This document shows positions 8,124-20,319 of a stretch of 64,000 nt of DNA, piece after piece; the first letter of the stretch is position 1; each line of letters starts with the position of its first letter. The stretch covers positions 22,059 through 86,058 of the forward strand of contig CAVSZG010000002.1 of NCBI GenBank assembly GCA_963732405.1. The letters are read 5' to 3'. A program made the position numbers and the translations under genes. The notes beneath the pieces were generated by a model that saw only the letters and a program-made list of their open reading frames with translations, searched no databases and was not told the DNA's origin. The DNA is from an uncultured beta proteobacterium. Lineage in GTDB: Bacteria > Pseudomonadota > Gammaproteobacteria > Burkholderiales > Burkholderiaceae_E.

Positions 8124-8489
8124 ATGGCGGACGACGCCGAGCAGTGGCGTAGCGGTCTGAGCGACGGGTATCGCGGCGACGGGGTGTCGCTGAGCCTCGA
8201 CGGTGAGTCGGGGTTTGCGCGGGCTCGGGCGCAGGGCGAGGCCCCGCGCCAGGCGCACGAGCGCGAGGTGGCGATTGCCTTGCAACCGCGAGAGGCGGCG
8301 GGCCGGTACGGGTTTCTGCAGGGCTACCGAGGGGAGGGCGGCGTGGGCGGTCAGCGTGGTCAACGTGGCTTGGAGGCAGAGCCGCCCCCAGATCCCGTTT
8401 ATCCGGAAGCCTGGGCCGAAGGGCGCGCGTTGCGCCTGGAGCATGACGACGCCTTCGAGGCGGCGTTGTGGAACGCAGGGCCGGCATGA
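8124..8489 (+). CDS. hypothetical protein translationally coupled to the integrase
   Basis: 121-aa ORF with G/C-dominated third positions. Its TGA overlaps the integrase ATG (ATGA at 8486-8489). I recognise no family. Confidence 0.4.
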   Translation: MADDAEQWRSGLSDGYRGDGVSLSLDGESGFARARAQGEAPRQAHEREVAIALQPREAAGRYGFLQGYRGEGGVGGQRGQRGLEAEPPPDPVYPEAWAEGRALRLEHDDAFEAALWNAGPA

Positions 8490-10597
8490 CCGACGTCGTG
8501 ATCCCCATCCGCGAGCCGGCGGCAGCAATGCTGGCCGCGGCCGATGCGCCGGCCTCGAAGGGGGGCCGGCCGATCGGCTCCCGCCAGCCGCTCGAGCGCG
8601 GCGTGCGGGCAGTGCACCGCGGGCATTTCGCCTTCATGCGCGCGGTCGTCCAGGGGCTGCCGATGGGCGAGAATTTTCATCGCTACCTGCCGCACGAAGC
8701 CGACGCGGGCGGGGCGCGCTCAGCTGCCACGACGCTGGCCTGGTTGCGCGCGGAACTGGCGGCGGCCGCTCGCAAGGAACATCGCTACGCGACCGCACGC
8801 CTGATGAGCCTGGCCATCCTGCACCAGCCCGACTCGCTGCAAGCGCTGCCGGGCATCGACGAGTGGGCGTCCGCGCGCGGCTTGGAGGTCCATAGCGAGG
8901 CAGAAAAGCTGCAGGCCTACCAGGCCGCGCAGAGTACGGCGACCCGCCACCGGATGGTGCGGCACGCGCGCCTGGTTGAGCAGCAACTGAGCGAGCTCCG
9001 GTGGCTGGAGGATCTGATCGTGCGCCAGCCCCAGGCAGGCGACGCCTGTGGGGCGTGGTTCACGCGCTCAGTGGAGCAGCGCCTGAGCGGCTCGGGCCTC
9101 TTCACCCTCGCCCAGCTCGTCGATCGGATCAACGGGGCCGGGCGTCTGTGGTACCGGCCGATCGCCGGGCTCGGGGCCCGCACGGCCCAGCGCCTGCAGG
9201 CCTGGTTGCGCGCGCATGAATCATCGCTAGGCCGGGCACTCGGCCCCTATGCCACGGTGGCGCGCAGCCGCCTGTATGCGGTGGAACTGGCGGCGGTGCA
9301 ACCGCCGGCCACCGCCATCCGCCCCCTGGAGAAGTTCCAGGTGCCGGCCGAACTGGACGGCCGGGCAGGGCGCTACCGCCAGCCGCAGGCGCAATGCCTG
9401 ATGAGGGCACGCAACGACTACGAAGCGATCCTGGCCTGGTTGCAGGCCAAACGCCCCAAGTCGCCAGCCGCGCAGGCCCAGCAGCGCGCCCGCAAGCGCG
9501 GGCGCGACGCCACCGATCCGGCCGCGCCGCTCGCCTGGCTTGAAGTGCTCTCGCACACCCAGCGATCGTGCCGCAAGGAGGCCGAGCGCTTCCTGCTCTG
9601 GGCAATCCTGGCGCGCGGCAAGCCGCTCTCGTCGATGTCGACCGAGGACTGCATCGCGTACCGGGATTTCCTCGCCGACCCGCAACCGGCCGACACCTGG
9701 TGCGGGCCACGCGGGCGCGAGCGCTGGTCGCCACTCTGGCGCCCGTTCGAGGGGCCGCTGTCGCAATCAGCGCAGCACCTGGCGATTACGCAGTTGTGCA
9801 ACCTCTACACATTCCTGGCGAACCAGAACTACCTGATGGGCAATCCGTGGATGGGGGTGGCGACGCCGCGTCGGCCGGGGCCGGGGCTGGACGCGAGCCG
9901 CAGATTCACCGCGCGGCAGTGGCAGTTGATCCTGGACTACGTGAAGGGGCTGGACGACACCGAGAAGAACCGACGCATCGCGCTGGCGCTGGGGCTGCTG
10001 TATGCGACCGGGTTGCGGCTGGGTGAGGCGGTGAATGCCAAAGTGGCGGACCTGACCTGGGTCGAGTATCCGCCCGACAGCGACGGAGGCGCGCCGGTGA
10101 CCGGGTGGGAACTGAAGGTGCTGGGTAAGGGGGAGAAGCTGCGCGAGGTCGTGGTGCCGGAATCGGTCGTGGCTCTGCTGCGTGGGTATTTGGTCGCAAG
10201 AGGCTTGCCCGGCAATCTGAACGCGTCGGAAAACCCTGAAGCATTCCTGTTGGCGCCGCTCACGCACCAGACCAAGCCGGCGGACCGATTCGGCGTGTCA
10301 GCCGGGCAGGGCGCCGGCGCGGGCCTCGCGGCCGCAACGCTCTATGCATTGCTGAAAACCCTCTTCGACAAATGCGCGGACGACGTATCGGTGCATCATC
10401 CCGCTGAGGGTGATCGAATCCGGCGCGCGAGCACGCACTGGTTACGGCACACTCATGCGAGCCATGCGATTGCGAACGGCGTGCCGATCAAAGTGGCGCA
10501 GGCCAGCCTTGGGCATGCGTCGCTGGCGACTACGACGGTTTATGTCACGACCGAGAAAGCGCGCAGGATGCGGGCGATGCAGGAAGCGATGAAGTGA
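8486..10597 (+). CDS. large tyrosine recombinase/integrase (DUF3701-type N-terminal region + phage-integrase catalytic domain)
   Basis: The C-terminus has ATGLRLGE, LGKGEK, THWLRHTHASH, LGHASLATTTVYV (R..K..HxxR..H..Y). The long N-terminal region (HFAFMRAVVQGL...) is typical of roughly 700-aa island integrases. Confidence 0.9.
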   Translation: MTDVVIPIREPAAAMLAAADAPASKGGRPIGSRQPLERGVRAVHRGHFAFMRAVVQGLPMGENFHRYLPHEADAGGARSAATTLAWLRAELAAAARKEHRYATARLMSLAILHQPDSLQALPGIDEWASARGLEVHSEAEKLQAYQAAQSTATRHRMVRHARLVEQQLSELRWLEDLIVRQPQAGDACGAWFTRSVEQRLSGSGLFTLAQLVDRINGAGRLWYRPIAGLGARTAQRLQAWLRAHESSLGRALGPYATVARSRLYAVELAAVQPPATAIRPLEKFQVPAELDGRAGRYRQPQAQCLMRARNDYEAILAWLQAKRPKSPAAQAQQRARKRGRDATDPAAPLAWLEVLSHTQRSCRKEAERFLLWAILARGKPLSSMSTEDCIAYRDFLADPQPADTWCGPRGRERWSPLWRPFEGPLSQSAQHLAITQLCNLYTFLANQNYLMGNPWMGVATPRRPGPGLDASRRFTARQWQLILDYVKGLDDTEKNRRIALALGLLYATGLRLGEAVNAKVADLTWVEYPPDSDGGAPVTGWELKVLGKGEKLREVVVPESVVALLRGYLVARGLPGNLNASENPEAFLLAPLTHQTKPADRFGVSAGQGAGAGLAAATLYALLKTLFDKCADDVSVHHPAEGDRIRRASTHWLRHTHASHAIANGVPIKVAQASLGHASLATTTVYVTTEKARRMRAMQEAMK

Positions 10598-10862
10598 ATA
10601 TTCAGTCCGCCGCGGCAACTCCCCGGAACATTGGGAAATAAGTGCTAGACAAGGCTATCACGAAAAATTCCCACCACACGCTCCAGCATCTCTAGTGAAG
10701 ATCGAAACGCGTTGGTCATGACCACATCCTCTAGATGTCGTGGTCTCCGAAAAGACCGAGACGGATCAATCCGAAGTTCGAGCCGATTTATTGTGAAGCC
10801 GACACGGACGAAGAGAATAAAAGCAACTAAAGAGGTACCAAAACCAATGTCAAATTCATGGA

Positions 10863-11093
10863 GTGCGCGTGTCATCACCAATTCAATTGACTAATGAAGA
10901 CATCAAGCGCCTAAAGGATACTCAGCTTGTCGAATTGCTATGGCAATTGGTCTATCTAGAACTCACCGCAAATTCAATTGAGCAGTACGACAGTCAGGTA
11001 CCGCTCTCAATCTACATCAAGGACGGAGGTATTGATGGACTCGCGCTGTGGCACGATGGCCCAGATAAAACTGCCATGTTTCCCTGCCTGTAG
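10863..11093 (+). pseudogene. 5' fragment of an Avs-like nuclease-NTPase gene (first half of the Mrr-like PD-(D/E)xK core), cut by IS21
   Basis: ...LSIYIKDGGIDGLALWHDGPDKTAMFPC, then L* read from the IS end. The GTG/TTG start is uncertain. Confidence 0.7.
11083..11088. repeat. target-site duplication, left copy (CCTGCC)
   Basis: The identical hexamer lies immediately outside both IS termini (11083-11088 and 14531-14536). Confidence 0.8.
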
Positions 11094-11145
11094 GTGCCGC
11101 TCAGAACGCGCGACTATTTGCCGCTATTCGCTGACCGACTGATTT

Positions 11146-11189
11146 CACGATAAGGCCGGCGGGACTCGAGTCCCGCCGGCCTTATCGTG
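11146..11189. repeat. perfect 44-bp palindrome inside the IS left end
   Basis: cacgataaggccggcgggactc / gagtcccgccggccttatcgtg, with 22-nt arms and no mismatch. Confidence 0.85.
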
Positions 11190-11395
11190 GCAGCTTGGTC
11201 GGGCGGTTTGCTGCGTTGCAGGGGTGACGCGGGTCCGTTCCAGGCGTACAACGAATCCGCCGATGAGGTGGGGGCAACGCCGGTCAGATTTCGAGGTCAG
11301 TCTGGCGTGGCCCCCGGTACCGTGCGTCCGCACAGCCTGCGCAGTATCGCCGCTGCGTCGGTTCAAGTCCAGCGCTCATCGGCCGGATTGCGCCG

Positions 11396-11884
11396 ATGCC
11401 CGAGTCGATACGCCTGTTCCTGTGCGCCCGCTGCCGGTGCCAGGTGTTCTTGTGCCGCCGATGTGATCGTGGCCAGGTGTATTGCCTTCACGGGTGCGCG
11501 GTGGCTGCGCGACGCCAGTCGCGCCTTCAGGCTGCCCACCGCTACGCGCGCAGCGTCCGGGGCCGAACCCGCAACGCGCTTCGTCAGCGCCGATTTCGCC
11601 AGCGCCGCCGTGATGCGACCGTCCAAACCGACCCTCTCGAAGAGCTCGGCCAGAGCGGCGAACTTGTAAAAGTAACGCATCAGGGTTCCCCCGCAGTGCG
11701 CCTGCTTGCTCTACTGGCCAGCCCGACAAGCAGGACGGTTGCAGCGTCGGTTTCTTCGTCTCCGAATGCGCTGCGCTGTCACGGTTGCGGGAATCAGAGC
11801 GCCAGGTTCGTGCGGCGCGGGTTCTTGCCCCCGCTCGAACGTCGTCGCCGTCCGACTGTGCCCGCCGCCCCAATGCCGCCATGA
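11396..11884 (+). CDS. Cys-rich (zinc-ribbon-like) protein encoded inside the IS upstream of istA
   Basis: MPESIRLFLCARCRCQVFLCRRCDRGQVYCLHGC...CHGCG. Its TGA overlaps the istA ATG (ATGA at 11881-11884). An antisense ORF 11363..11680 competes with it. Confidence 0.5.
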   Translation: MPESIRLFLCARCRCQVFLCRRCDRGQVYCLHGCAVAARRQSRLQAAHRYARSVRGRTRNALRQRRFRQRRRDATVQTDPLEELGQSGELVKVTHQGSPAVRLLALLASPTSRTVAASVSSSPNALRCHGCGNQSARFVRRGFLPPLERRRRPTVPAAPMPP

Positions 11885-13455
11885 CCATAGACCGTGACAC
11901 CCAGACCCGGATCCTGCGCTACCACTTCGTGGAGGGCTGGCCGGTCAACACGATCGCCGCGCAACTGCAGGTGCACCATTCGGTGGTGGACCGGGTGATC
12001 TCGCAGGCCGGCCAGCCCAAGAGCGAACGCACCCGGCGCGCCTCCAAGATCGATCCGTTCGTGCCCTTCATCCTGCAGACCCTGGAGCAGTTCCCTCGCC
12101 TGAGCGCCGCGCGCCTGTACGGCATGGCCTGTGCGCGCGGCTATCAGGGTGCCAGCAGTCACTTCCGCGCCCGCGTGGCGCAGCTGCGCCCACCGCGGAT
12201 CGCCCCGGCTTACCTGCGCCTGCGCACCCTGGCCGGCGAACAATGCCAAGTGGACTGGGCTCACTTCGGCCAGGTGCAGATCGGTTCGGCCAGCCGCCCG
12301 CTGATGGCCTTCGTGATGGTGCTCTCGTATAGCCGGATGCTGTTCGTGCGCTTTTACCTGAACGCGCGCATGGACAGCTTCCTGGACGGGCACGTGCGAG
12401 CCTTCGAGCTGTTGGGTGGGGCCACCCGCTCGTGCCTGTACGACAACTTAAAATCAGCCGTGTTGGAGCGGCGCGGCCAGGCCATCCGATTCAATCCGGC
12501 GTTGCTGGAATTGGCGGCTCATTATCGGTTCGAGCCCCGTGCCGCCGCCCCCGGGCGGGGCAACGAAAAGGGGCGCGTGGAGAGGGCTATTCGGTACCTT
12601 CGCCAAGCCTTCTTCGCCGCCCGAATCTGGTCCGATGTGACCGATCTGAATGCCCAGGCTCAGGCCTGGTGTTTGAACGAAGCCGCTCAGCGTCCCTGGG
12701 CCGAGGGTCCCCAGCGCACCGTCGGACAGGTCTGGCGCGAGGAGCAAGCGCTGCTGGTCGACTTGCCCGACACCCCGTTCTGCGCCCAGGAGTTGACCGA
12801 AGTGCGCGTGGGCAAGACCCCCTATGTGCGCTTCGATCTGAACGACTACACGGTGCCCCACACCCATGTGCACCGCACCCTGACCGTTGCCGCCACCCAC
12901 GAGACCGTTCGCGTGCTCGAGGGGGTGCAGGTTCTGGCGTGCCATCCGCGCAACTGGGGACGCAACGAATGCATCGAGCAGCCCGAACATGTCCAAGCGC
13001 TGGTGGCCGACAAGCGCCAGGCACGCGAGCACCGAGCGCAGGATCGCCTGGCGCTGGCCGCCCCGGCCAGCGTCATGTTGCTGGAAACGGCCGCCGCCGC
13101 CGGGCGGCCGATCGCCAGCCTCGTGCGCGAGCTCGATGAATTACTGGATCACTACGGCGGGACCGAATTGCAGCTGGCCTGCACCGAGGCGCTGGCCGCC
13201 GGGGTGGCCCACACCAACGCCGTGCGCCAGGTGCTCGAGCGCCGGCGCGATGCACGCGCCTTGCCCCCGCCGCTGGCCGTGGCCCTGCCCGACGATGCGC
13301 GGGTGCGCAACCTGGTGGTCAGACCCGCTTCGTTGGCCGCCTACGATCAACTGGGCGCCGCCACGACCGATCCGAACGAGGATCCGAACGCCAACAGCGC
13401 GGCCCAACCCTGGACATCCGAACCGCCTTCTGAGGAGACCTCGTCATGGCCATGA
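11881..13455 (+). CDS. istA: IS21-family transposase IstA
   Basis: An HTH N-terminus, a DDE core (QVDWAHFG...LYDNLKSAV...GNEKGRVERAIRYLRQ) and a length of 524 aa. Confidence 0.95.
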   Translation: MTIDRDTQTRILRYHFVEGWPVNTIAAQLQVHHSVVDRVISQAGQPKSERTRRASKIDPFVPFILQTLEQFPRLSAARLYGMACARGYQGASSHFRARVAQLRPPRIAPAYLRLRTLAGEQCQVDWAHFGQVQIGSASRPLMAFVMVLSYSRMLFVRFYLNARMDSFLDGHVRAFELLGGATRSCLYDNLKSAVLERRGQAIRFNPALLELAAHYRFEPRAAAPGRGNEKGRVERAIRYLRQAFFAARIWSDVTDLNAQAQAWCLNEAAQRPWAEGPQRTVGQVWREEQALLVDLPDTPFCAQELTEVRVGKTPYVRFDLNDYTVPHTHVHRTLTVAATHETVRVLEGVQVLACHPRNWGRNECIEQPEHVQALVADKRQAREHRAQDRLALAAPASVMLLETAAAAGRPIASLVRELDELLDHYGGTELQLACTEALAAGVAHTNAVRQVLERRRDARALPPPLAVALPDDARVRNLVVRPASLAAYDQLGAATTDPNEDPNANSAAQPWTSEPPSEETSSWP

Positions 13456-14243
13456 ACCCATCAAACTCGTCGCGCGTGCCACTTCGCGAGCGCGCCGCGG
13501 CCCTGCAATTGAGCGGCCTGATCGCCCACTGGGATGAACTGCTCGACACTCAGTCCGATTGGCTGGAAGCCCTGATCACCTGGGAGGAGAACGAGCGCAA
13601 CGATCGGGGCCTGCGCCGGCGGCTTCGCAACGCGCGCATCGGCCACTTCAAGCCGATGGCCGACTTCGACTGGGACTGGCCCACCGCCTGCGACCGGGCC
13701 GCCATCACCGAGTTGATGATCCTGGGCTTCTTGCACGACAAGTCCAACGTCGTGCTGGTCGGGGGCAACGGCGTGGGCAAGACCATGATCGCGCAGAACC
13801 TGGCCCACCAGTGCGTGCTGCGTGGGCGCTCGGCGCTGTTCGCCAACGCGGCAGCGATGCTCGGCGAACTGGCCGCCCAGGACAGCGACAATGCGCTGCG
13901 ACGCAAGCTGCGTCACTACACGCGCCCGGATCTGCTCGTGATCGACGAAGTCGGGTATCTGTCCTACGGCACGCGCCACGCCGACCTGCTGTTCGAGATC
14001 ATCAACCGCCGCTACGAGACCAAGTCGACGGTTGTGACGACGAATCGACCGTTTGCCGAATGGAACGAGGTGTTCCCCAACGCCGCCTGCGTGGTCTCGA
14101 TCATCGATCGGCTCGTGCACCATGCCGAGATCATCCAGATCGAGGGCCAGTCATACCGACACAAGGAAGCCCAGGAGCGCACCGAGCAGCGCAGGGCCGA
14201 ACGCAAGCGCAAGGCGATGCCCAACCGAGGGCACAAATCATGA
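13446..14243 (+). CDS. istB: IS21-family helper ATPase IstB
   Basis: Walker A GGNGVGKT and Walker B LLVIDEVGYL. It overlaps the istA 3' end. Confidence 0.95.
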   Translation: MAMNPSNSSRVPLRERAAALQLSGLIAHWDELLDTQSDWLEALITWEENERNDRGLRRRLRNARIGHFKPMADFDWDWPTACDRAAITELMILGFLHDKSNVVLVGGNGVGKTMIAQNLAHQCVLRGRSALFANAAAMLGELAAQDSDNALRRKLRHYTRPDLLVIDEVGYLSYGTRHADLLFEIINRRYETKSTVVTTNRPFAEWNEVFPNAACVVSIIDRLVHHAEIIQIEGQSYRHKEAQERTEQRRAERKRKAMPNRGHKS

Positions 14244-14452
14244 TCTCGCGTCTGGTCATCTACACCGACTGGAATGCCCAACAGGCCGACGCGACAATCC
14301 AACTCCTGAAGACCTTGCTGACCGAGATCGCCGACATCCATGGGGAACAAATCCGGCGTCACCGCGCCGCAATCGTAGAACCTCACAGCGAAATCGACGC
14401 CCAGCTATCGCTTGAACTGGAACCCCACCGGGAGGAACCAACACCGCTCTGA
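14240..14452 (+). CDS. small ORF (70 aa) coupled to istB, inside the IS
   Basis: Its ATG overlaps the istB TGA (ATGA at 14240-14243): MISRLVIYTDWNAQQADATIQLLKTLLTEIADIHGEQ... I recognise no family. Confidence 0.3.
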   Translation: MISRLVIYTDWNAQQADATIQLLKTLLTEIADIHGEQIRRHRAAIVEPHSEIDAQLSLELEPHREEPTPL

Positions 14453-14530
14453 CGACCGGCATCGTGAGAATCCGCGTTGCCGCCGCCAGCAATAGCGGCG
14501 AATATCCGCGGATTTACGCCGTCGTTAACA

Positions 14531-14536
14531 CCTGCC
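14531..14536. repeat. target-site duplication, right copy (CCTGCC)
   Basis: See the left copy at 11083-11088. Confidence 0.8.
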
Positions 14537-17500
14537 GCAACGTCGGCTTTCAAGCAAAGGCCACGGATATGTCTGAAGCTGCATGCCGCAACGAGGTTCG
14601 AGCTAGCGACGGGACACTAAAACCGCAAGTCCGAAGGCTGATCGAGAACGGCGGGTCGTATGTACTGTTTCTTGGCCGTGACTGTGTTCACGCATCTAAA
14701 GAGCCGCGTATCACTTCAATCAGAAATGCAATCGAATCTGCATCAGCCAAGAACAGAGGAACGCCATTATCAGTAGGGAATGTCTACATTTACGACGCTT
14801 CGGAAATTGCCAGTTGGGTCAATGCTTATCCGGCTGCGGTGGCCTCAGTATTTGACTTCTTGGGCAAGCCTGGCGCTGAAGCAAAATCTTGGAGGGAGAT
14901 GTCGGGGTACCCAAAATTCGAAATTTCTTTCTCAGACAAAGACAATAGTAGGAAAGAACTTCTGGAGTCCTTGCGGATTTCTGCAAACGCTGAGCGTAGC
15001 GTAACGCGCCTAACGGGGTCCTCCGGTCTTGGAAAGACTCGGCTTGTCTTTGAGGCATTTCGTCCGCCGAATGCCGCCTCCCAAAACTCTTTACAGGCCG
15101 CTCTCTCGGGCCGATTCTGTTACTTAGATGCGACGAAGACGGAAGATGTTCTTGGAATAGTCCGAGGGTGGCGCCGGTTGAACTCCAAAGGAATTGTCGT
15201 AGTTGATGATTGTCCTTTCGAGTTGCATGAAGATTTAACCGAGGAAATTCGTCGAGGCGACAGCCGATTGTCAATTATAACGATCGGCAACGATCACGAT
15301 CCGACGGCATATGCAGGGACGCCAACTCGATTGCTGCGCTTAGAGGCCGCGAGTTCTGACTTGATAGAGGATCTGTTGGAGTCTTCGTTCAAAGGAATAT
15401 CGCGAGAAGATCGACGCTTTATTGCCTCTGATTTGGCACAAGGATATCCCTTGATGGCAATCTTCACGGCATCTGCTCGCGAAGATGGTGCGCCGCTCTC
15501 AGCCCGGATAACACCGGCGGTATTGGCCAAGCACCTTGGCGGAAGTCTAGAAGAGTCGTCGCGGGAAGCCAAAGTCATCTCAGCATGTGCTTTATTCGAG
15601 CATGTTGGATTCGACGCAGAGGCCGCTGAAGAACGCGAATTTGTAAGGACAGTGTTCTGCCACGACGTTTCAGCCGATGATTTTTACGCAGATATCGTCA
15701 AGTTCCAGAAGCTAGGCGTCGTTACGCGGTACGGTCGGATAATTCAGGTATGCCCTAAGCCTCTTGCAATTCGACTTGCCGCTGATTGGTGGGAAAAATG
15801 TCCACCAGAACGAGCCGCTGAAATCGTTCAACAAAGCTTCCCTCCGCCGCTTGCTGAGGCATTCTGCGAGCGGCTTCGTATGTTGGACTTTGTACCGGCG
15901 TTGGTAAGCATATCTGAGAAGCTTTGCGGTAGGTCCGGCCCTTTTGGCCAAGCGAAAGTGCTCAGTTCTGGACTGGGTTCACAGCTCTTTCGCGCGATAG
16001 CGGAGGTGAATCCGGTTCATGCTGTTGCGGCCCTTGAATGCGCGTTTTGCGACTGGAGTCAGAAGCAGCTCATGGAGTTGGAAGGTGAGACGCGTAGAAA
16101 CCTTGTTTGGGCGCTTGAGAAACTTGCCTTCAGAGCAGCTACGTTTCAACGCGCAACTAAGTTCTTGATTAGACTGGCGGAGGCTGAGAATGAGCGTTGG
16201 TCGAATAACGCGACGGGAGTCCTCATTCGACTGTTCATGGTGCTGCTCTCAGGCACCCAGGCACCCCTCGACAATCGGATCGTGTTGTTGCGCCTAATGG
16301 CTCGGAGTGAAAGCATCGGCATCAGACGCATTGCCGTTAAGGCACTCGCCAGCGCGCTGACCACTGACAACTTTGTGGGGGAGTCCGGGCCAGAATATCA
16401 AGGAAGCGCGGGACCACTCCCCCAGTTTAGACCAAAAACATGGAAGGAAGTATTTGATTATTGGAAGCAATGTTTAGATGAACTTGTTCGATTGTCGCAG
16501 GAGCGAACTGATGTGGGAGATGAGGCTGCAGCCACAATTGCATCCGAAATCCGAGGGCTAGTTAAGCACGGTAGGATGGATGATATGGAAAGCGCCCTTG
16601 TAAATGTGGCCAATGAGATCCGTGCGAAGGGAAAAGTGTGGACGCAAGCCATAGGTTCTATTAAGAATGCGCTGAAGTATGACCTCAAGCGTTCTCCGTT
16701 GGGTACCGAAGAACGTTTGCAGTCTTGGCTCAGAATCCTGGCTCCCTCTGACATACCACAGCGAATTAGGTTGCTAGTTTCTGAGGCACCTTTGGATCAT
16801 ATCGAGGAGAGCGACGGCAGCTGGGTAGATGTTGCCGCACGAAACGCAGAAGAGTTTGGGCGACAGCTCGGCAACGCCTGGGAGCCTTTGATAGAACATC
16901 TGCATTCCACATTGAAAGGGGAACAGCGGCAGGCATTCTCGTTCGGACGCGGCCTTGCAGAGGGCAGCCTAGTCTCAACGTCGTTGTATGAAGCTATTTT
17001 AGAAGTAGTCAAGGTAATTCCGATCGAGAACCTCAACTGCGCATTGTTGTGTGGCTGGTTGTCGGTAGCTGATGAGCAAGATCCAAACTATTGCGACTCT
17101 CTATTTGAGTCACTTGCGAGTAGTCCAGGTTTTTCTCGGTCGCTCCCGAACATTGCCCGTCGGGTGAAGCTGAATGATTTTCGAGTTACAGTCCTAGTAG
17201 GGCTGCTTGATGCCAAACACATAGACTGTAATCAACTGTATGGGCTTTCCTATGGCAAAGCAATGGAGCAAGTGTCCCGCGACTGCGCGGCCAAGCTCAG
17301 TCGGTCACTTATCAAGGGCGGCGTTGAGGGATCATGGGTTGCTCTCGATATTCTCTTTATGTACAGCCATGGCGACCGGGAGCTGATCGCGTCGTTGGAT
17401 GAAGAGTTTAGTGCGATTATAATGACCCCAGACGTGCTGCTATCGGAGCATGCCAAACGTGATTCTCACCAGTTCGAGGTTATTGCTGAACGCCTAATTG

Positions 17501-18120
17501 TTCAATCTGCTGACGTAGCGAGACACCTGACCAGCACCCTCTGCGCATGCGTGATTAGCGAGTTTGAAGTCGACGATCATCTCGCTGGGAACCTGTTTAC
17601 TGTCTTGTTTGCGAATCAGGCGAACATATCGTGGCCGATTGTTCGCCGGGCGATAGTCGTGAGTGAAGGCCTAGACAGGCTGAGGTTAGTCAATTCATTG
17701 GCTGTTCGGGATCGAATCCACGATCGTTCCGCGCCCATAGATAAGCTGGACCTGAAACTTCTTAGAGAATCGTGCTCATACGATCCGATAAATGTTCCGC
17801 CTGTGATAGCGAGAATAGTCCGAATCATCGACGAAGATGAGAATGGGGAGTGGAGGTTGTCCGAAGTCGCGATGATGTTGGTTGACGAATTTTCATTCTC
17901 CGAAGGCGTGTTGGATGCTATCGATGAAAGCCTTCACACCTTCTCGTGGTCGGGCTCGCTTGTTCCCTACTTCGATCGCCTTGTTGTTGTTATGTCTCCG
18001 TTACTTAACCACGGTCGTGAAGATGTACAACAATGGGCACAGCGCGTTATTGAGGGAGCGACGGAGAGCAAAAGGTGGGCGTCTCAACGAGACGACGAGC
18101 GAAATGTTGGCAGGAGGTAG
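14537..18120 (+). pseudogene. 3' portion of the Avs-like gene: second half of the Mrr-like nuclease core, a P-loop (STAND-like) NTPase and about 900 aa of helical repeats
   Basis: RNVGFQAKAT supplies the QxK of D...QxK. Walker A GSSGLGKT is at 15016-15039 and Walker B GIVVVDDC at 15190-15213. A long Leu/Ala-rich repeat region follows. The ORF is open from a GTG at 14464 inside the IS. Confidence 0.75.
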
Positions 18121-18139
18121 ACGGGAAGTGCTTGTATGC

Positions 18140-18325
18140 GTTCGACGAACCGATGAAGCATAACGAAATCTTCTTGAAAGCCTACGACACGGTCGCCGAT
18201 GCCCGGCGCGCAATCGCCGCCTTCATCAATTGGTACAACACCGTCGACCGCACTCTGCGATCGGCCGGATCCCGCCGATGCCTGCCTATGAGAAACTGCT
18301 GCCAACCCTTAGACTGGCGGCGTGA
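18140..18325 (+). pseudogene. IS3-family transposase (OrfB) C-terminal relic, frameshifted
   Basis: ...NEIFLKAYDTVADARRAIAAFINWYNT, then in another frame HSAIGRIPPMPAYEKLLPTLRLAA*. This resembles the integrase-core C-terminus of the IS3/IS407 group. Confidence 0.5.
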
Positions 18326-18518
18326 CGCTGCTGGTGGCCGACCTGACGCTGGACAACCCCAACGTTTGGTACGAACTGGGGGTGCGCCACGCTTTGCGCG
18401 CCCGTGGGGTGCAGCTAGTGCAGGGACCGCAGCCGACCAGTCCGTTCGACATCTATACCGACCGCAAACTGCGAGGCGATGAGGTGATGAAGGCTTTTCG
18501 GGTCTAGGGAGCAACAAA

Positions 18519-20319
18519 TTGAAGATCACACCGACATCATTGACGGTCAACCAGCTGCTTGGTCAGACGAACGAGCGCTACATCGTCCCACCGTATCAGC
18601 GTCGTTACTCTTGGCTCGAAAGGCAGATCGGTGAGTTGATCGACGACATCTCGCTCATCGAAGCCAACGACACGCACCTGCTCGGTAGCATCGTTTGCCT
18701 AGCCGGCAGCCACGTCGCGGACCTCAATGAACTGGAAGTCGTCGACGGGCAGCAGCGGCTCACTTCAGTCAGCATCCTGCTTGTGTGCCTGAAGGAGCGT
18801 CTGCAGGCGGAGGGCCCTGCCGAGCAGTCGACGATTTCGGATATTGAGAAGCTGTCCGTCGCGAAGAGCATGGCCGGCAAGGTGGCCTCCAAGATCAAAT
18901 TGGATTCGATCGACGCCAAGGATTACGCCACGCTTCTCAAATGGCGACGCGGAAGCTGAGGTCGACAACAGGAGCTTGGCCGGCGCCTTCGCTTTCGTGC
19001 GTAAGTGGGTTGCCGATACCCCGATCGACGAGTTGAAGCGCTTCTGGTACCGCTTGGCCAACCAAGCGATAGTTATCCGCCTCGATGTCAGCAATGCCAA
19101 AGACGCGTTCAAGCTCTTTGAGACCATCAATAACCGTGGTCTTCGCCTTAGCCACACCGACATCATCAAGAATTTTCTACTTGGTAACGCTGCCCGCTTC
19201 GGTGAGCCTCAACTCACCTATGCTCGGACAAACTGGGCCAAGGTCGTGCTCAACTTGGATTGCACGGACTCGGACACTTTCTTCCGCTACTACCTGACAG
19301 CGGTCACCAACAAGCGGATCACTGCGGGCAAGGTTGTAACGCAGTTCAAGCTGCTCTTTCACACTCGAGTTAAAGAGGCGAAGAGCCTGCCGGAGCAGCA
19401 TTTATACGACTCCGCGGATGAGGCTGTCGGCGAGGAGGACGATTTCGGTGATGACGGGCAAAGCGACGATAAGGTAATACTGATAACGCACGCCGACCCA
19501 ACCAAGACCGTAACGTTCAAGAAATTCGTTTCAGTGCTTGTTGACTACTCTCGCGCTTACGGCGAGATCGTTCGAGCCAGAACCGGCGATGCTAGGATCG
19601 ATCGCCACCTGTCTAACCTGAGGATGATCAAGGCAGCACAGACGTATGGCTTCCTCATGCATCTTCGGGTCAACGGCTGCAGTGACAAAAACCTCCGTGC
19701 TGTACTGAAAATCACAGAAGGCTTCGTTCTCCGGCGCCATATCTGCAAGGAGCGATCAAACGAGACTGAGACGCTATTTGCCGGCATGTGCGCGGTTGAC
19801 GCGGCAGACCCTGTTTCGAAGACTCGGACCTACTACAGAGACCTGTGCCCATCTGACGAGAAGTTCAAAGAGGAATTCGCGAATACATCGTTCCCCGCGA
19901 ACTTGATCGAGCGTGCTAGGTACTGCCTTGAACAGATTGAACTAGCGGGCCACGGATCGCACGCCGAGCTTGCCGTCTTGGGCGGTGAGGATGTCCACGT
20001 CGAGCACATCATTCCGCAGAAGATCAAGACGCTTGCCGCCAAGGACGAATTTGGAGACTGGGTCACCTACCTGGGTGTAGCATCCGAGGCAAAGCATCAG
20101 CGGTATATATCCCGGATCGGGAACATGACACTGTTTGCCGGAGCACTGAACATCGGAGCATCAAACAATCCATTTTCTCGCAAGCAGCATGCATACAGGG
20201 ATTCAGCGATCAAGTTGACGCAAGAGCTTTGTGATTACCCGAAATTCAAATTTCCGCAGGTAGTGAGCCGATCTGAGTTGCTCGCAACCATTGCTGTGGG
20301 ACTGTGGCCTCGGCCATAG
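18519..20319 (+). pseudogene. GmrSD-like type IV restriction enzyme (DUF262 + DUF1524), frameshifted near 18935-18945
   Basis: ORF 18519..18959 has PPYQRRYSW and DGQQRLTS (DUF262). ORF 18844..20319 has FETINNRGLRLSHTDIIKNF and HVEHIIPQ...GNMTLF (DUF1524 His-Me finger). GGGAG lies before the TTG at 18519. Confidence 0.8.

Follow-up and report, generated by a model that had tools for sequence, protein, structure and literature searches.

An IS21-family element splits a probable Avs8-family antiphage gene in a betaproteobacterial defence islet

The locus described here raises the question of whether two open reading frames (ORFs) parted by a high-GC insert were once a single gene and, if so, what that gene did. 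It lies in a stretch of 64,000 nucleotides from an uncultured beta proteobacterium (assembly GCA_963732405.1, contig CAVSZG010000002.1, positions 22,059 to 86,058), hereafter the window; coordinates are those of the window, and genes are on the forward strand unless stated otherwise. The two ORFs are located at 10863–11093 (76 aa) and 14464–18120 (1218 aa), and the insert between them is an insertion sequence (IS). We read the pair as a divergent, single-gene, IS-inactivated pseudogene of the Avs8 (PD-lambda-4A) family of antiphage STAND nucleoside triphosphatases (NTPases), with a probability of about 0.85.

A first-pass annotation of the window had claimed that an intact 1269-aa frame is recovered when the IS is removed together with one copy of its target-site duplication. 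This was confirmed: joining 10863–11088 to 14537–18120 gives 3810 nt, corresponding to 1269 codons plus a stop codon, with 0 internal stops. The rebuilt junction (KTAMFPC/RNVGFQAKAT, where the slash marks the join) aligned without gaps to 57 intact homologues, and the DNA of four intact orthologue loci aligned to the window as far as 11083 and became collinear again after the IS. The repaired length of 1269 aa is close to the family median of 1266 aa. The two ORFs are one gene split by an IS21-family element, and the reconstruction is exact.

The element occupies 11089–14530 (3442 bp) and is flanked by direct 6-bp copies of the target-site duplication CCTGCC at 11083–11088 and 14531–14536. It has TG...CA termini, and sub-terminal inverted repeats are found 20 nt from each end (11109–11128 and 14491–14510, 85% complementary). 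Two overlapping genes encode the transposition proteins: istA (11881–13455), a DDE transposase of 524 aa with Pfam matches to rve (2.1e-7) and Mu-transpos_C_2 (1.5e-23), and istB (13446–14243), an AAA+ helper ATPase of 265 aa matching IstB_IS21 (PF01695, 4.8e-59). The istA/istB pair, the TG...CA ends, the sub-terminal repeats and the short target-site duplication are all features of the IS21 family, to which we assign the insert. Members of this family are usually smaller than the 3442 bp seen here. The stretch of approximately 790 bp ahead of istA includes a perfect 44-bp palindrome (11146–11189) and an antisense ORF of 105 aa (11363–11680) with no Pfam or PADLOC match; a further ORF of 70 aa (14240–14452) starts at an ATGA that overlaps the istB stop codon. 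These extra ORFs may be passenger or accessory genes. The window contains a single copy of the element. Its nearest plasmid relatives, from Burkholderia, Paraburkholderia, Alicycliphilus and Aromatoleum, are 71–76% identical, and no copy at 80% identity or above was found among PLSDB plasmids.

The insertion point falls between residues 75 and 76, in a loop ahead of the strand that carries the QxK motif. The 5′ fragment of the avs8A-like gene (10863–11088) comprises codons 1–75 plus 1 nt and retains the DGGxD half of the catalytic motif, with D54 at 11022–11024 and D58 at 11034–11036. The 3′ fragment (14537–18120) starts at the second base of codon 76 and continues to the stop codon; it carries the FQxK half (Q81 at 14551–14553, K83 at 14557–14559) together with the remainder of the nuclease domain and the NTPase and sensor modules. 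The Asp half and the QxK half therefore lie on opposite sides of the IS, as had been annotated. Because the insertion places D54/D58 and Q81-x-K83 on separate ORFs, the present allele makes no active effector and the system is dead.

The start codons of both fragments need some comment. The second in-frame GTG, at 10869, has a GGAG 5 nt upstream and would give a protein as long as the nearest orthologues (1267 aa); for these reasons it is probably the true start of the gene, rather than 10863. Downstream of the IS, GTG 14464 is only the mechanical start of the ORF. The public annotation of the fragment (P0001) begins at M87 (ATG 14569) and gives a protein of 1183 aa, spanning M87–R1269, that is 100% identical to the 3′ part of the window gene.

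To what family did the repaired protein belong? A PADLOC run, one of the checks that the first-pass annotation had proposed, assigned it from end to end to PD-Lambda-4_A: model PDLC03991 matched residues 9–1254 over profile positions 6–1268 of 1283 (E = 9.2e-99), and the second PD-Lambda-4_A model, PDLC03990, also matched (9.7e-29). At E ≤ 1, only PD-Lambda-4_A models were returned by PADLOC and no Avs1–5 profile matched; Pfam and NCBIfam returned no significant match (AAA_16 reached 0.14). Avs8 is the current name of PD-lambda-4. BLASTP of the repaired protein against Escherichia coli Avs8A produced a single high-scoring segment pair that joins residues 9–1252 to 6–1262 with 22.4% identity (E = 1.1e-42); the three regions score alike, at 25% (nuclease), 24% (NTPase) and 22% (sensor). 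A 182-aa NTPase segment given for WP_000963924.1 in a survey supplement matched the same positions of the repaired protein with 28% identity (E = 5e-13). As a query this segment gave short fragments only, and the full-length E. coli gene was obtained with the DNA of a locus carrying one such fragment, by way of RefSeq E. coli genomes. An intact avs8 locus is present in E. coli GE3, where a 1283-aa Avs8A (WP_096096413.1) is followed by WP_000443183.1, the published accession of Avs8B.

The window gene resembles E. coli Avs8A (WP_000963924.1 in ECOR07, WP_096096413.1 in GE3) in length (1269 versus 1283 aa), in domain order, in collinearity over the whole length and in its Walker A and B motifs, and the two proteins have the DGGID...FQAK motif (DGGxD...FQxK) in common. 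It differs from E. coli Avs8 in being 22–25% identical, in having no Avs8B, in being a pseudogene and in its host, which is apparently a high-GC betaproteobacterium and not an enterobacterium. The Avs8 family has already been described, and so the reconstruction, although correct, is an ordinary finding.

In its published description, E. coli Avs8A combines an Mrr-type nuclease with a STAND P-loop NTPase and a sensor built of repeats (bioRxiv 10.1101/2025.07.02.662641). In that study it bound the lambda capsid protein gpE with a dissociation constant (KD) of ~127 nM, as well as other major capsid proteins of the HK97 fold; capsid binding led to Mg- and ATP-dependent degradation of double-stranded DNA (dsDNA), defence was lost in nuclease active-site mutants, and Avs8B, the product of the second gene in the operon, was dispensable (bioRxiv 10.1101/2025.07.02.662641). 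An independent study likewise groups Avs8 with the Avs families that sense capsid (bioRxiv 10.64898/2026.01.04.697583). By analogy, the C-terminal alpha-solenoid of the intact 1267–1269-aa protein would bind a monomeric phage structural protein, most likely an HK97-fold major capsid protein. The STAND module would then oligomerise in an ATP-dependent manner, and the N-terminal D...QxK (PD-(D/E)xK-type) nuclease would be activated to degrade DNA and abort the infection. The present analysis itself establishes the insertion and its exact reversal, family membership, the conserved motifs, the folds of NTPase and sensor, the lack of Avs8B and the defence setting; capsid sensing, oligomerisation and DNase output are in this scheme borrowed from the literature on a homologue of 22% identity. 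Capsid specificity in particular is an extrapolation because identity to E. coli Avs8A is only 22–25%, and we rate the chance that the intact ancestor possessed it at slightly better than even.

The domains of the repaired protein fit this architecture. The first-pass annotation had described a nuclease, a STAND-like NTPase and a large helical-repeat region as the layout of an Avs protein, and three elements stood: a D...QxK nuclease-type domain, a STAND-like NTPase and ~750 aa of alpha-helical repeats. The Mrr-like fold that it gave to the first of these found no significant profile or fold match. The NTPase core (15016–15213) has Walker A (GSSGLGKT) at 15016–15039 and Walker B (GIVVVDDC) at 15190–15213, exactly the positions that had been assigned to them. 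In an alignment of 58 members, D54, G56, D58, Q81 and K83 are invariant in the nuclease domain, as are G239, G241, K242, R244, D299 and C301 in the NTPase.

An AlphaFold2 model of residues 77–1269 had a predicted local distance difference test (pLDDT) score of 90.5. In the NTPase region, the strands of a nucleotide-binding domain are followed by a helical domain and then by a winged-helix hairpin. The sensor, at approximately residues 520–1269 (15868–18117), is modeled as an all-alpha solenoid of ~750 aa, similar to HEAT, ARM and TPR repeats (pLDDT ~90). When the NTPase-plus-sensor model was searched with Foldseek, as the first-pass annotation had also suggested, the best PDB match was Avs3 bound to terminase (8dgc_A, E = 4.3e-9); further matches were to the solenoids CAND1, karyopherins and SF3B1 and to the STAND proteins NLRP14 and SAMD9. 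At the sequence level, the best match of the family profile among PDB sequences was the NB-ARC P-loop region of the plant NLR NRC1, although weakly (E = 0.0025). Avs3 and Avs4 (AVAST; PDB: 8DGC, 8DGF) likewise consist of an N-terminal PD-(D/E)xK-type nuclease, a STAND NTPase and a C-terminal helical-repeat sensor. The window gene is unlike them in that PADLOC finds no Avs1–5 match and the global TM-score is low (0.21). In addition, Avs3 and Avs4 sense terminase or portal, not capsid (bioRxiv 10.1101/2025.07.02.662641; 10.64898/2026.01.04.697583).

The protein collection contains 113 homologues, and 339 relatives were found in bacterial and archaeal species-representative genomes. The genome search used a query made from 24 closer sequences, and 80 loci were retrieved. 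Closest among the intact homologues are proteins of 1267 aa from Azohydromonas, Accumulibacter and Dokdonella, with 63% identity, and the series is continuous from there down to 20% identity. The first-pass annotation had proposed asking whether uninterrupted homologues sit in defence islands; they do lie beside defence genes, five of six sampled large neighbours being known defence proteins (a type I restriction endonuclease, HEC-05, SIR2, PD-Lambda-1 and a prokaryotic Argonaute, pAgo). No same-strand neighbour was kept across 57 homologue loci. A conserved partner gene was considered for this clade and rejected, for want of such a neighbour in the 57 loci and of an Avs8B homologue. Judging from the loci fetched, which show neither, the Avs8A-like gene is a single-gene system outside the enterobacteria. 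The closest intact orthologues also have IS elements directly upstream, an IS21 in Azohydromonas caseinilytica (L001, 5128–7464) and an IS3 in three metagenome contigs (L002–L004); the Azohydromonas IS21 has no detectable DNA similarity to the window IS.

Several results weigh against membership of Avs8 or against its nuclease. Identity to the characterised E. coli Avs8A is 22–25% in every domain. A tblastn search with Avs8B (WP_000443183.1) was negative both in the window, where the best E was 1.1, and in loci L001–L084. For the N-terminal domain, the model had no Foldseek match in the PDB at E ≤ 0.001, a Pfam search of 27 such domains returned no nuclease family and no Mrr_cat (DUF4365 appeared at 0.19 in 2 of the 27), and a sequence profile of the domain found nothing relevant in the PDB. 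The absence of Avs8B does not exclude membership of the family, because Avs8B is dispensable for defence. With profile and fold searches not significant, the case for an Mrr-like PD-(D/E)xK fold is made by the motif, the predicted topology and the published DNase activity of the E. coli homologue, which together suggest that it is likely. The model of the domain (pLDDT 86) shows an alpha-beta-beta-beta-alpha-beta topology in which the Asp residues precede beta2 and QxK lies on beta3. A PD-(D/E)xK enzyme would be expected to have this order, and the motif residues fall at canonical sites. The best relevant Foldseek matches, all below significance, were EcoT38I (probability 0.54), Bse634I and Avs3 (TMq 0.38).

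What other readings does the locus allow? The gene belongs to a 1267-aa betaproteobacterial clade that does not exceed 63% identity to its nearest relatives, is ~22% identical to E. coli Avs8A and always lacks Avs8B. It is unlikely, although the least so of the departures considered here, that this is a functionally distinct solo clade with a trigger other than an HK97-fold capsid or that the IS-truncated sensor-NTPase is expressed as a decoy or dominant-negative modulator.

A more specific alternative is that the gene represents a distinct, uncharacterised Avs-like family that has only the general STAND architecture in common with Avs8 and sensed another phage component. The first-pass annotation had left room for such a family. 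The sensor is only 22% identical to that of E. coli Avs8A, no Pfam or NCBIfam family covers the protein and the clade lacks Avs8B, all of which would fit. However, the PD-Lambda-4_A model matches from end to end at E = 9.2e-99, and a single collinear alignment with E. coli Avs8A extends over ~1250 residues in proteins of 1269 and 1283 aa with the same catalytic motif. The homologue series is unbroken from 63% to 20% identity, and the missing Avs8B is the component reported to be dispensable. The idea of an uncharacterised family was not borne out by these comparisons, and we regard it as quite unlikely.

A different possibility accepts the disrupted Avs8-family gene and gives it a new function. 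A nuclease-dead sensor-NTPase, starting at GTG 14464 or ATG 14569, could be made from an IS-borne or hybrid promoter and serve as a capsid-binding decoy or dominant-negative regulator. IS21 ends can supply the −35 element of hybrid promoters. The ORF at 14464–18120 is indeed open, as the first-pass annotation had noted, and the public annotation has its 1183-aa protein from ATG 14569. The nuclease-dead product that the same annotation had envisaged fared less well: a scan of both strands over 10550–14750 found no sigma-70-like promoter; neither the native gene nor the right end of the IS showed a consensus promoter. The window also has no second avs8 copy to regulate, the adjoining defence gene is itself broken, which fits decay, and similar IS disruption recurs in E. 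coli strains (both described below). We consider a gain of function of this kind very unlikely. Least probable of all, and close to negligible, is that the split is an assembly artefact in which a mis-join through a repeated IS conceals an intact gene: IS elements commonly cause mis-assembly, and the frameshift at an AAA run in the adjoining GmrSD-like gene could be a sequencing error, but no other IS copy exists in the window, the independent public annotation (P0001) has the same truncated product, and both IS–gene junctions are present with a perfect 6-bp target-site duplication and complete IS termini, which indicates real transposition and not a collapsed repeat.

An IS-inactivated Avs8-family pseudogene is not an isolated case. 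DNA of avs8A is present in 152 of 5426 complete E. coli genomes, and at least 20 of these 152 carry partial copies only. Further E. coli copies are split by IS1, by IS3 or by IS21 plus IS2: avs8A is split by IS1 in EC6622, by IS3 in A39 and TW10590, and by IS21 plus IS2/IS3 in PSS-15 (L085, AP027709.1 1246897–1259844). Because partial and IS-split copies recur among E. coli carriers, IS knockout of avs8A is recurrent and commonplace. The E. coli genes and the window gene are alike in being chromosomal, IS-flanked and often IS-disrupted.

Some relatives retain the same NTPase and sensor but have a different effector. In these proteins (P0084, P0086, P0087 and P0089, P0095, P0098, P0099), the N terminus is an esterase/lipase (alpha/beta hydrolase) or an MqsA-antitoxin-like domain (PF15731). 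Effector swapping of this sort is typical of Avs families, and the Avs8-like variants that show it appear to be uncharacterised. The repaired window sequence is itself a divergent Avs8 homologue without Avs8B, and it could be used to probe how far capsid recognition reaches within the family.

The genomic setting is that of mobile cargo. Directly upstream of the avs8A-like gene is a tyrosine recombinase/integrase gene (8468–10597, 709 aa by the longest ORF) with matches to DUF3701 (PF12482, 1.3e-19) and Phage_integrase (PF00589, 3e-16), and its presence shows the locus to be integrative-element cargo. The GC content falls from 0.70 at the integrase to 0.50–0.58 over ~10.6–22 kb, with the avs8A-like gene at 0.50–0.55. 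No tRNA genes were found anywhere in the window, no att-like direct repeats longer than 13 bp flank the low-GC island, and no related replicon turned up among plasmids when 24 kb of the window were searched by megablast.

Downstream of the avs8A-like gene is a GmrSD/HEC-06-like type IV restriction gene (DUF262 plus DUF1524, 18519–20319), which matches PADLOC HEC-06 (2e-23 and 3.8e-50) and Pfam GmrSD_N and GmrSD_C. It is broken by a single frameshift near 18940, beside an AAA run, into overlapping ORFs at 18519–18959 and 18844–20319; the break marks either the decay of a second defence gene or an error in sequencing. On the basis of the low-GC cargo adjoining the integrase and the frameshifted GmrSD-like gene, the locus is a decaying defence islet. 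It matters little in itself. It provides a clean case in which an IS has silenced an abortive-infection sensor that is costly to keep, beside what is probably a second decayed defence gene in integrase-linked cargo, and this agrees with a picture of defence islands in which genes are rapidly gained and lost.

Two smaller remnants lie between the avs8A-like and GmrSD-like genes. A remnant that resembles the C terminus of an IS3-type transposase, with a weak rve_3 match (E = 0.006), is located at 18130–18300, directly past the avs8A stop codon. It is followed at 18322–18507 by a 61-aa ORF, LVADLTLDNPNVWYELGVRHALRARG..., which has no PADLOC match and may be a fragment of another gene.

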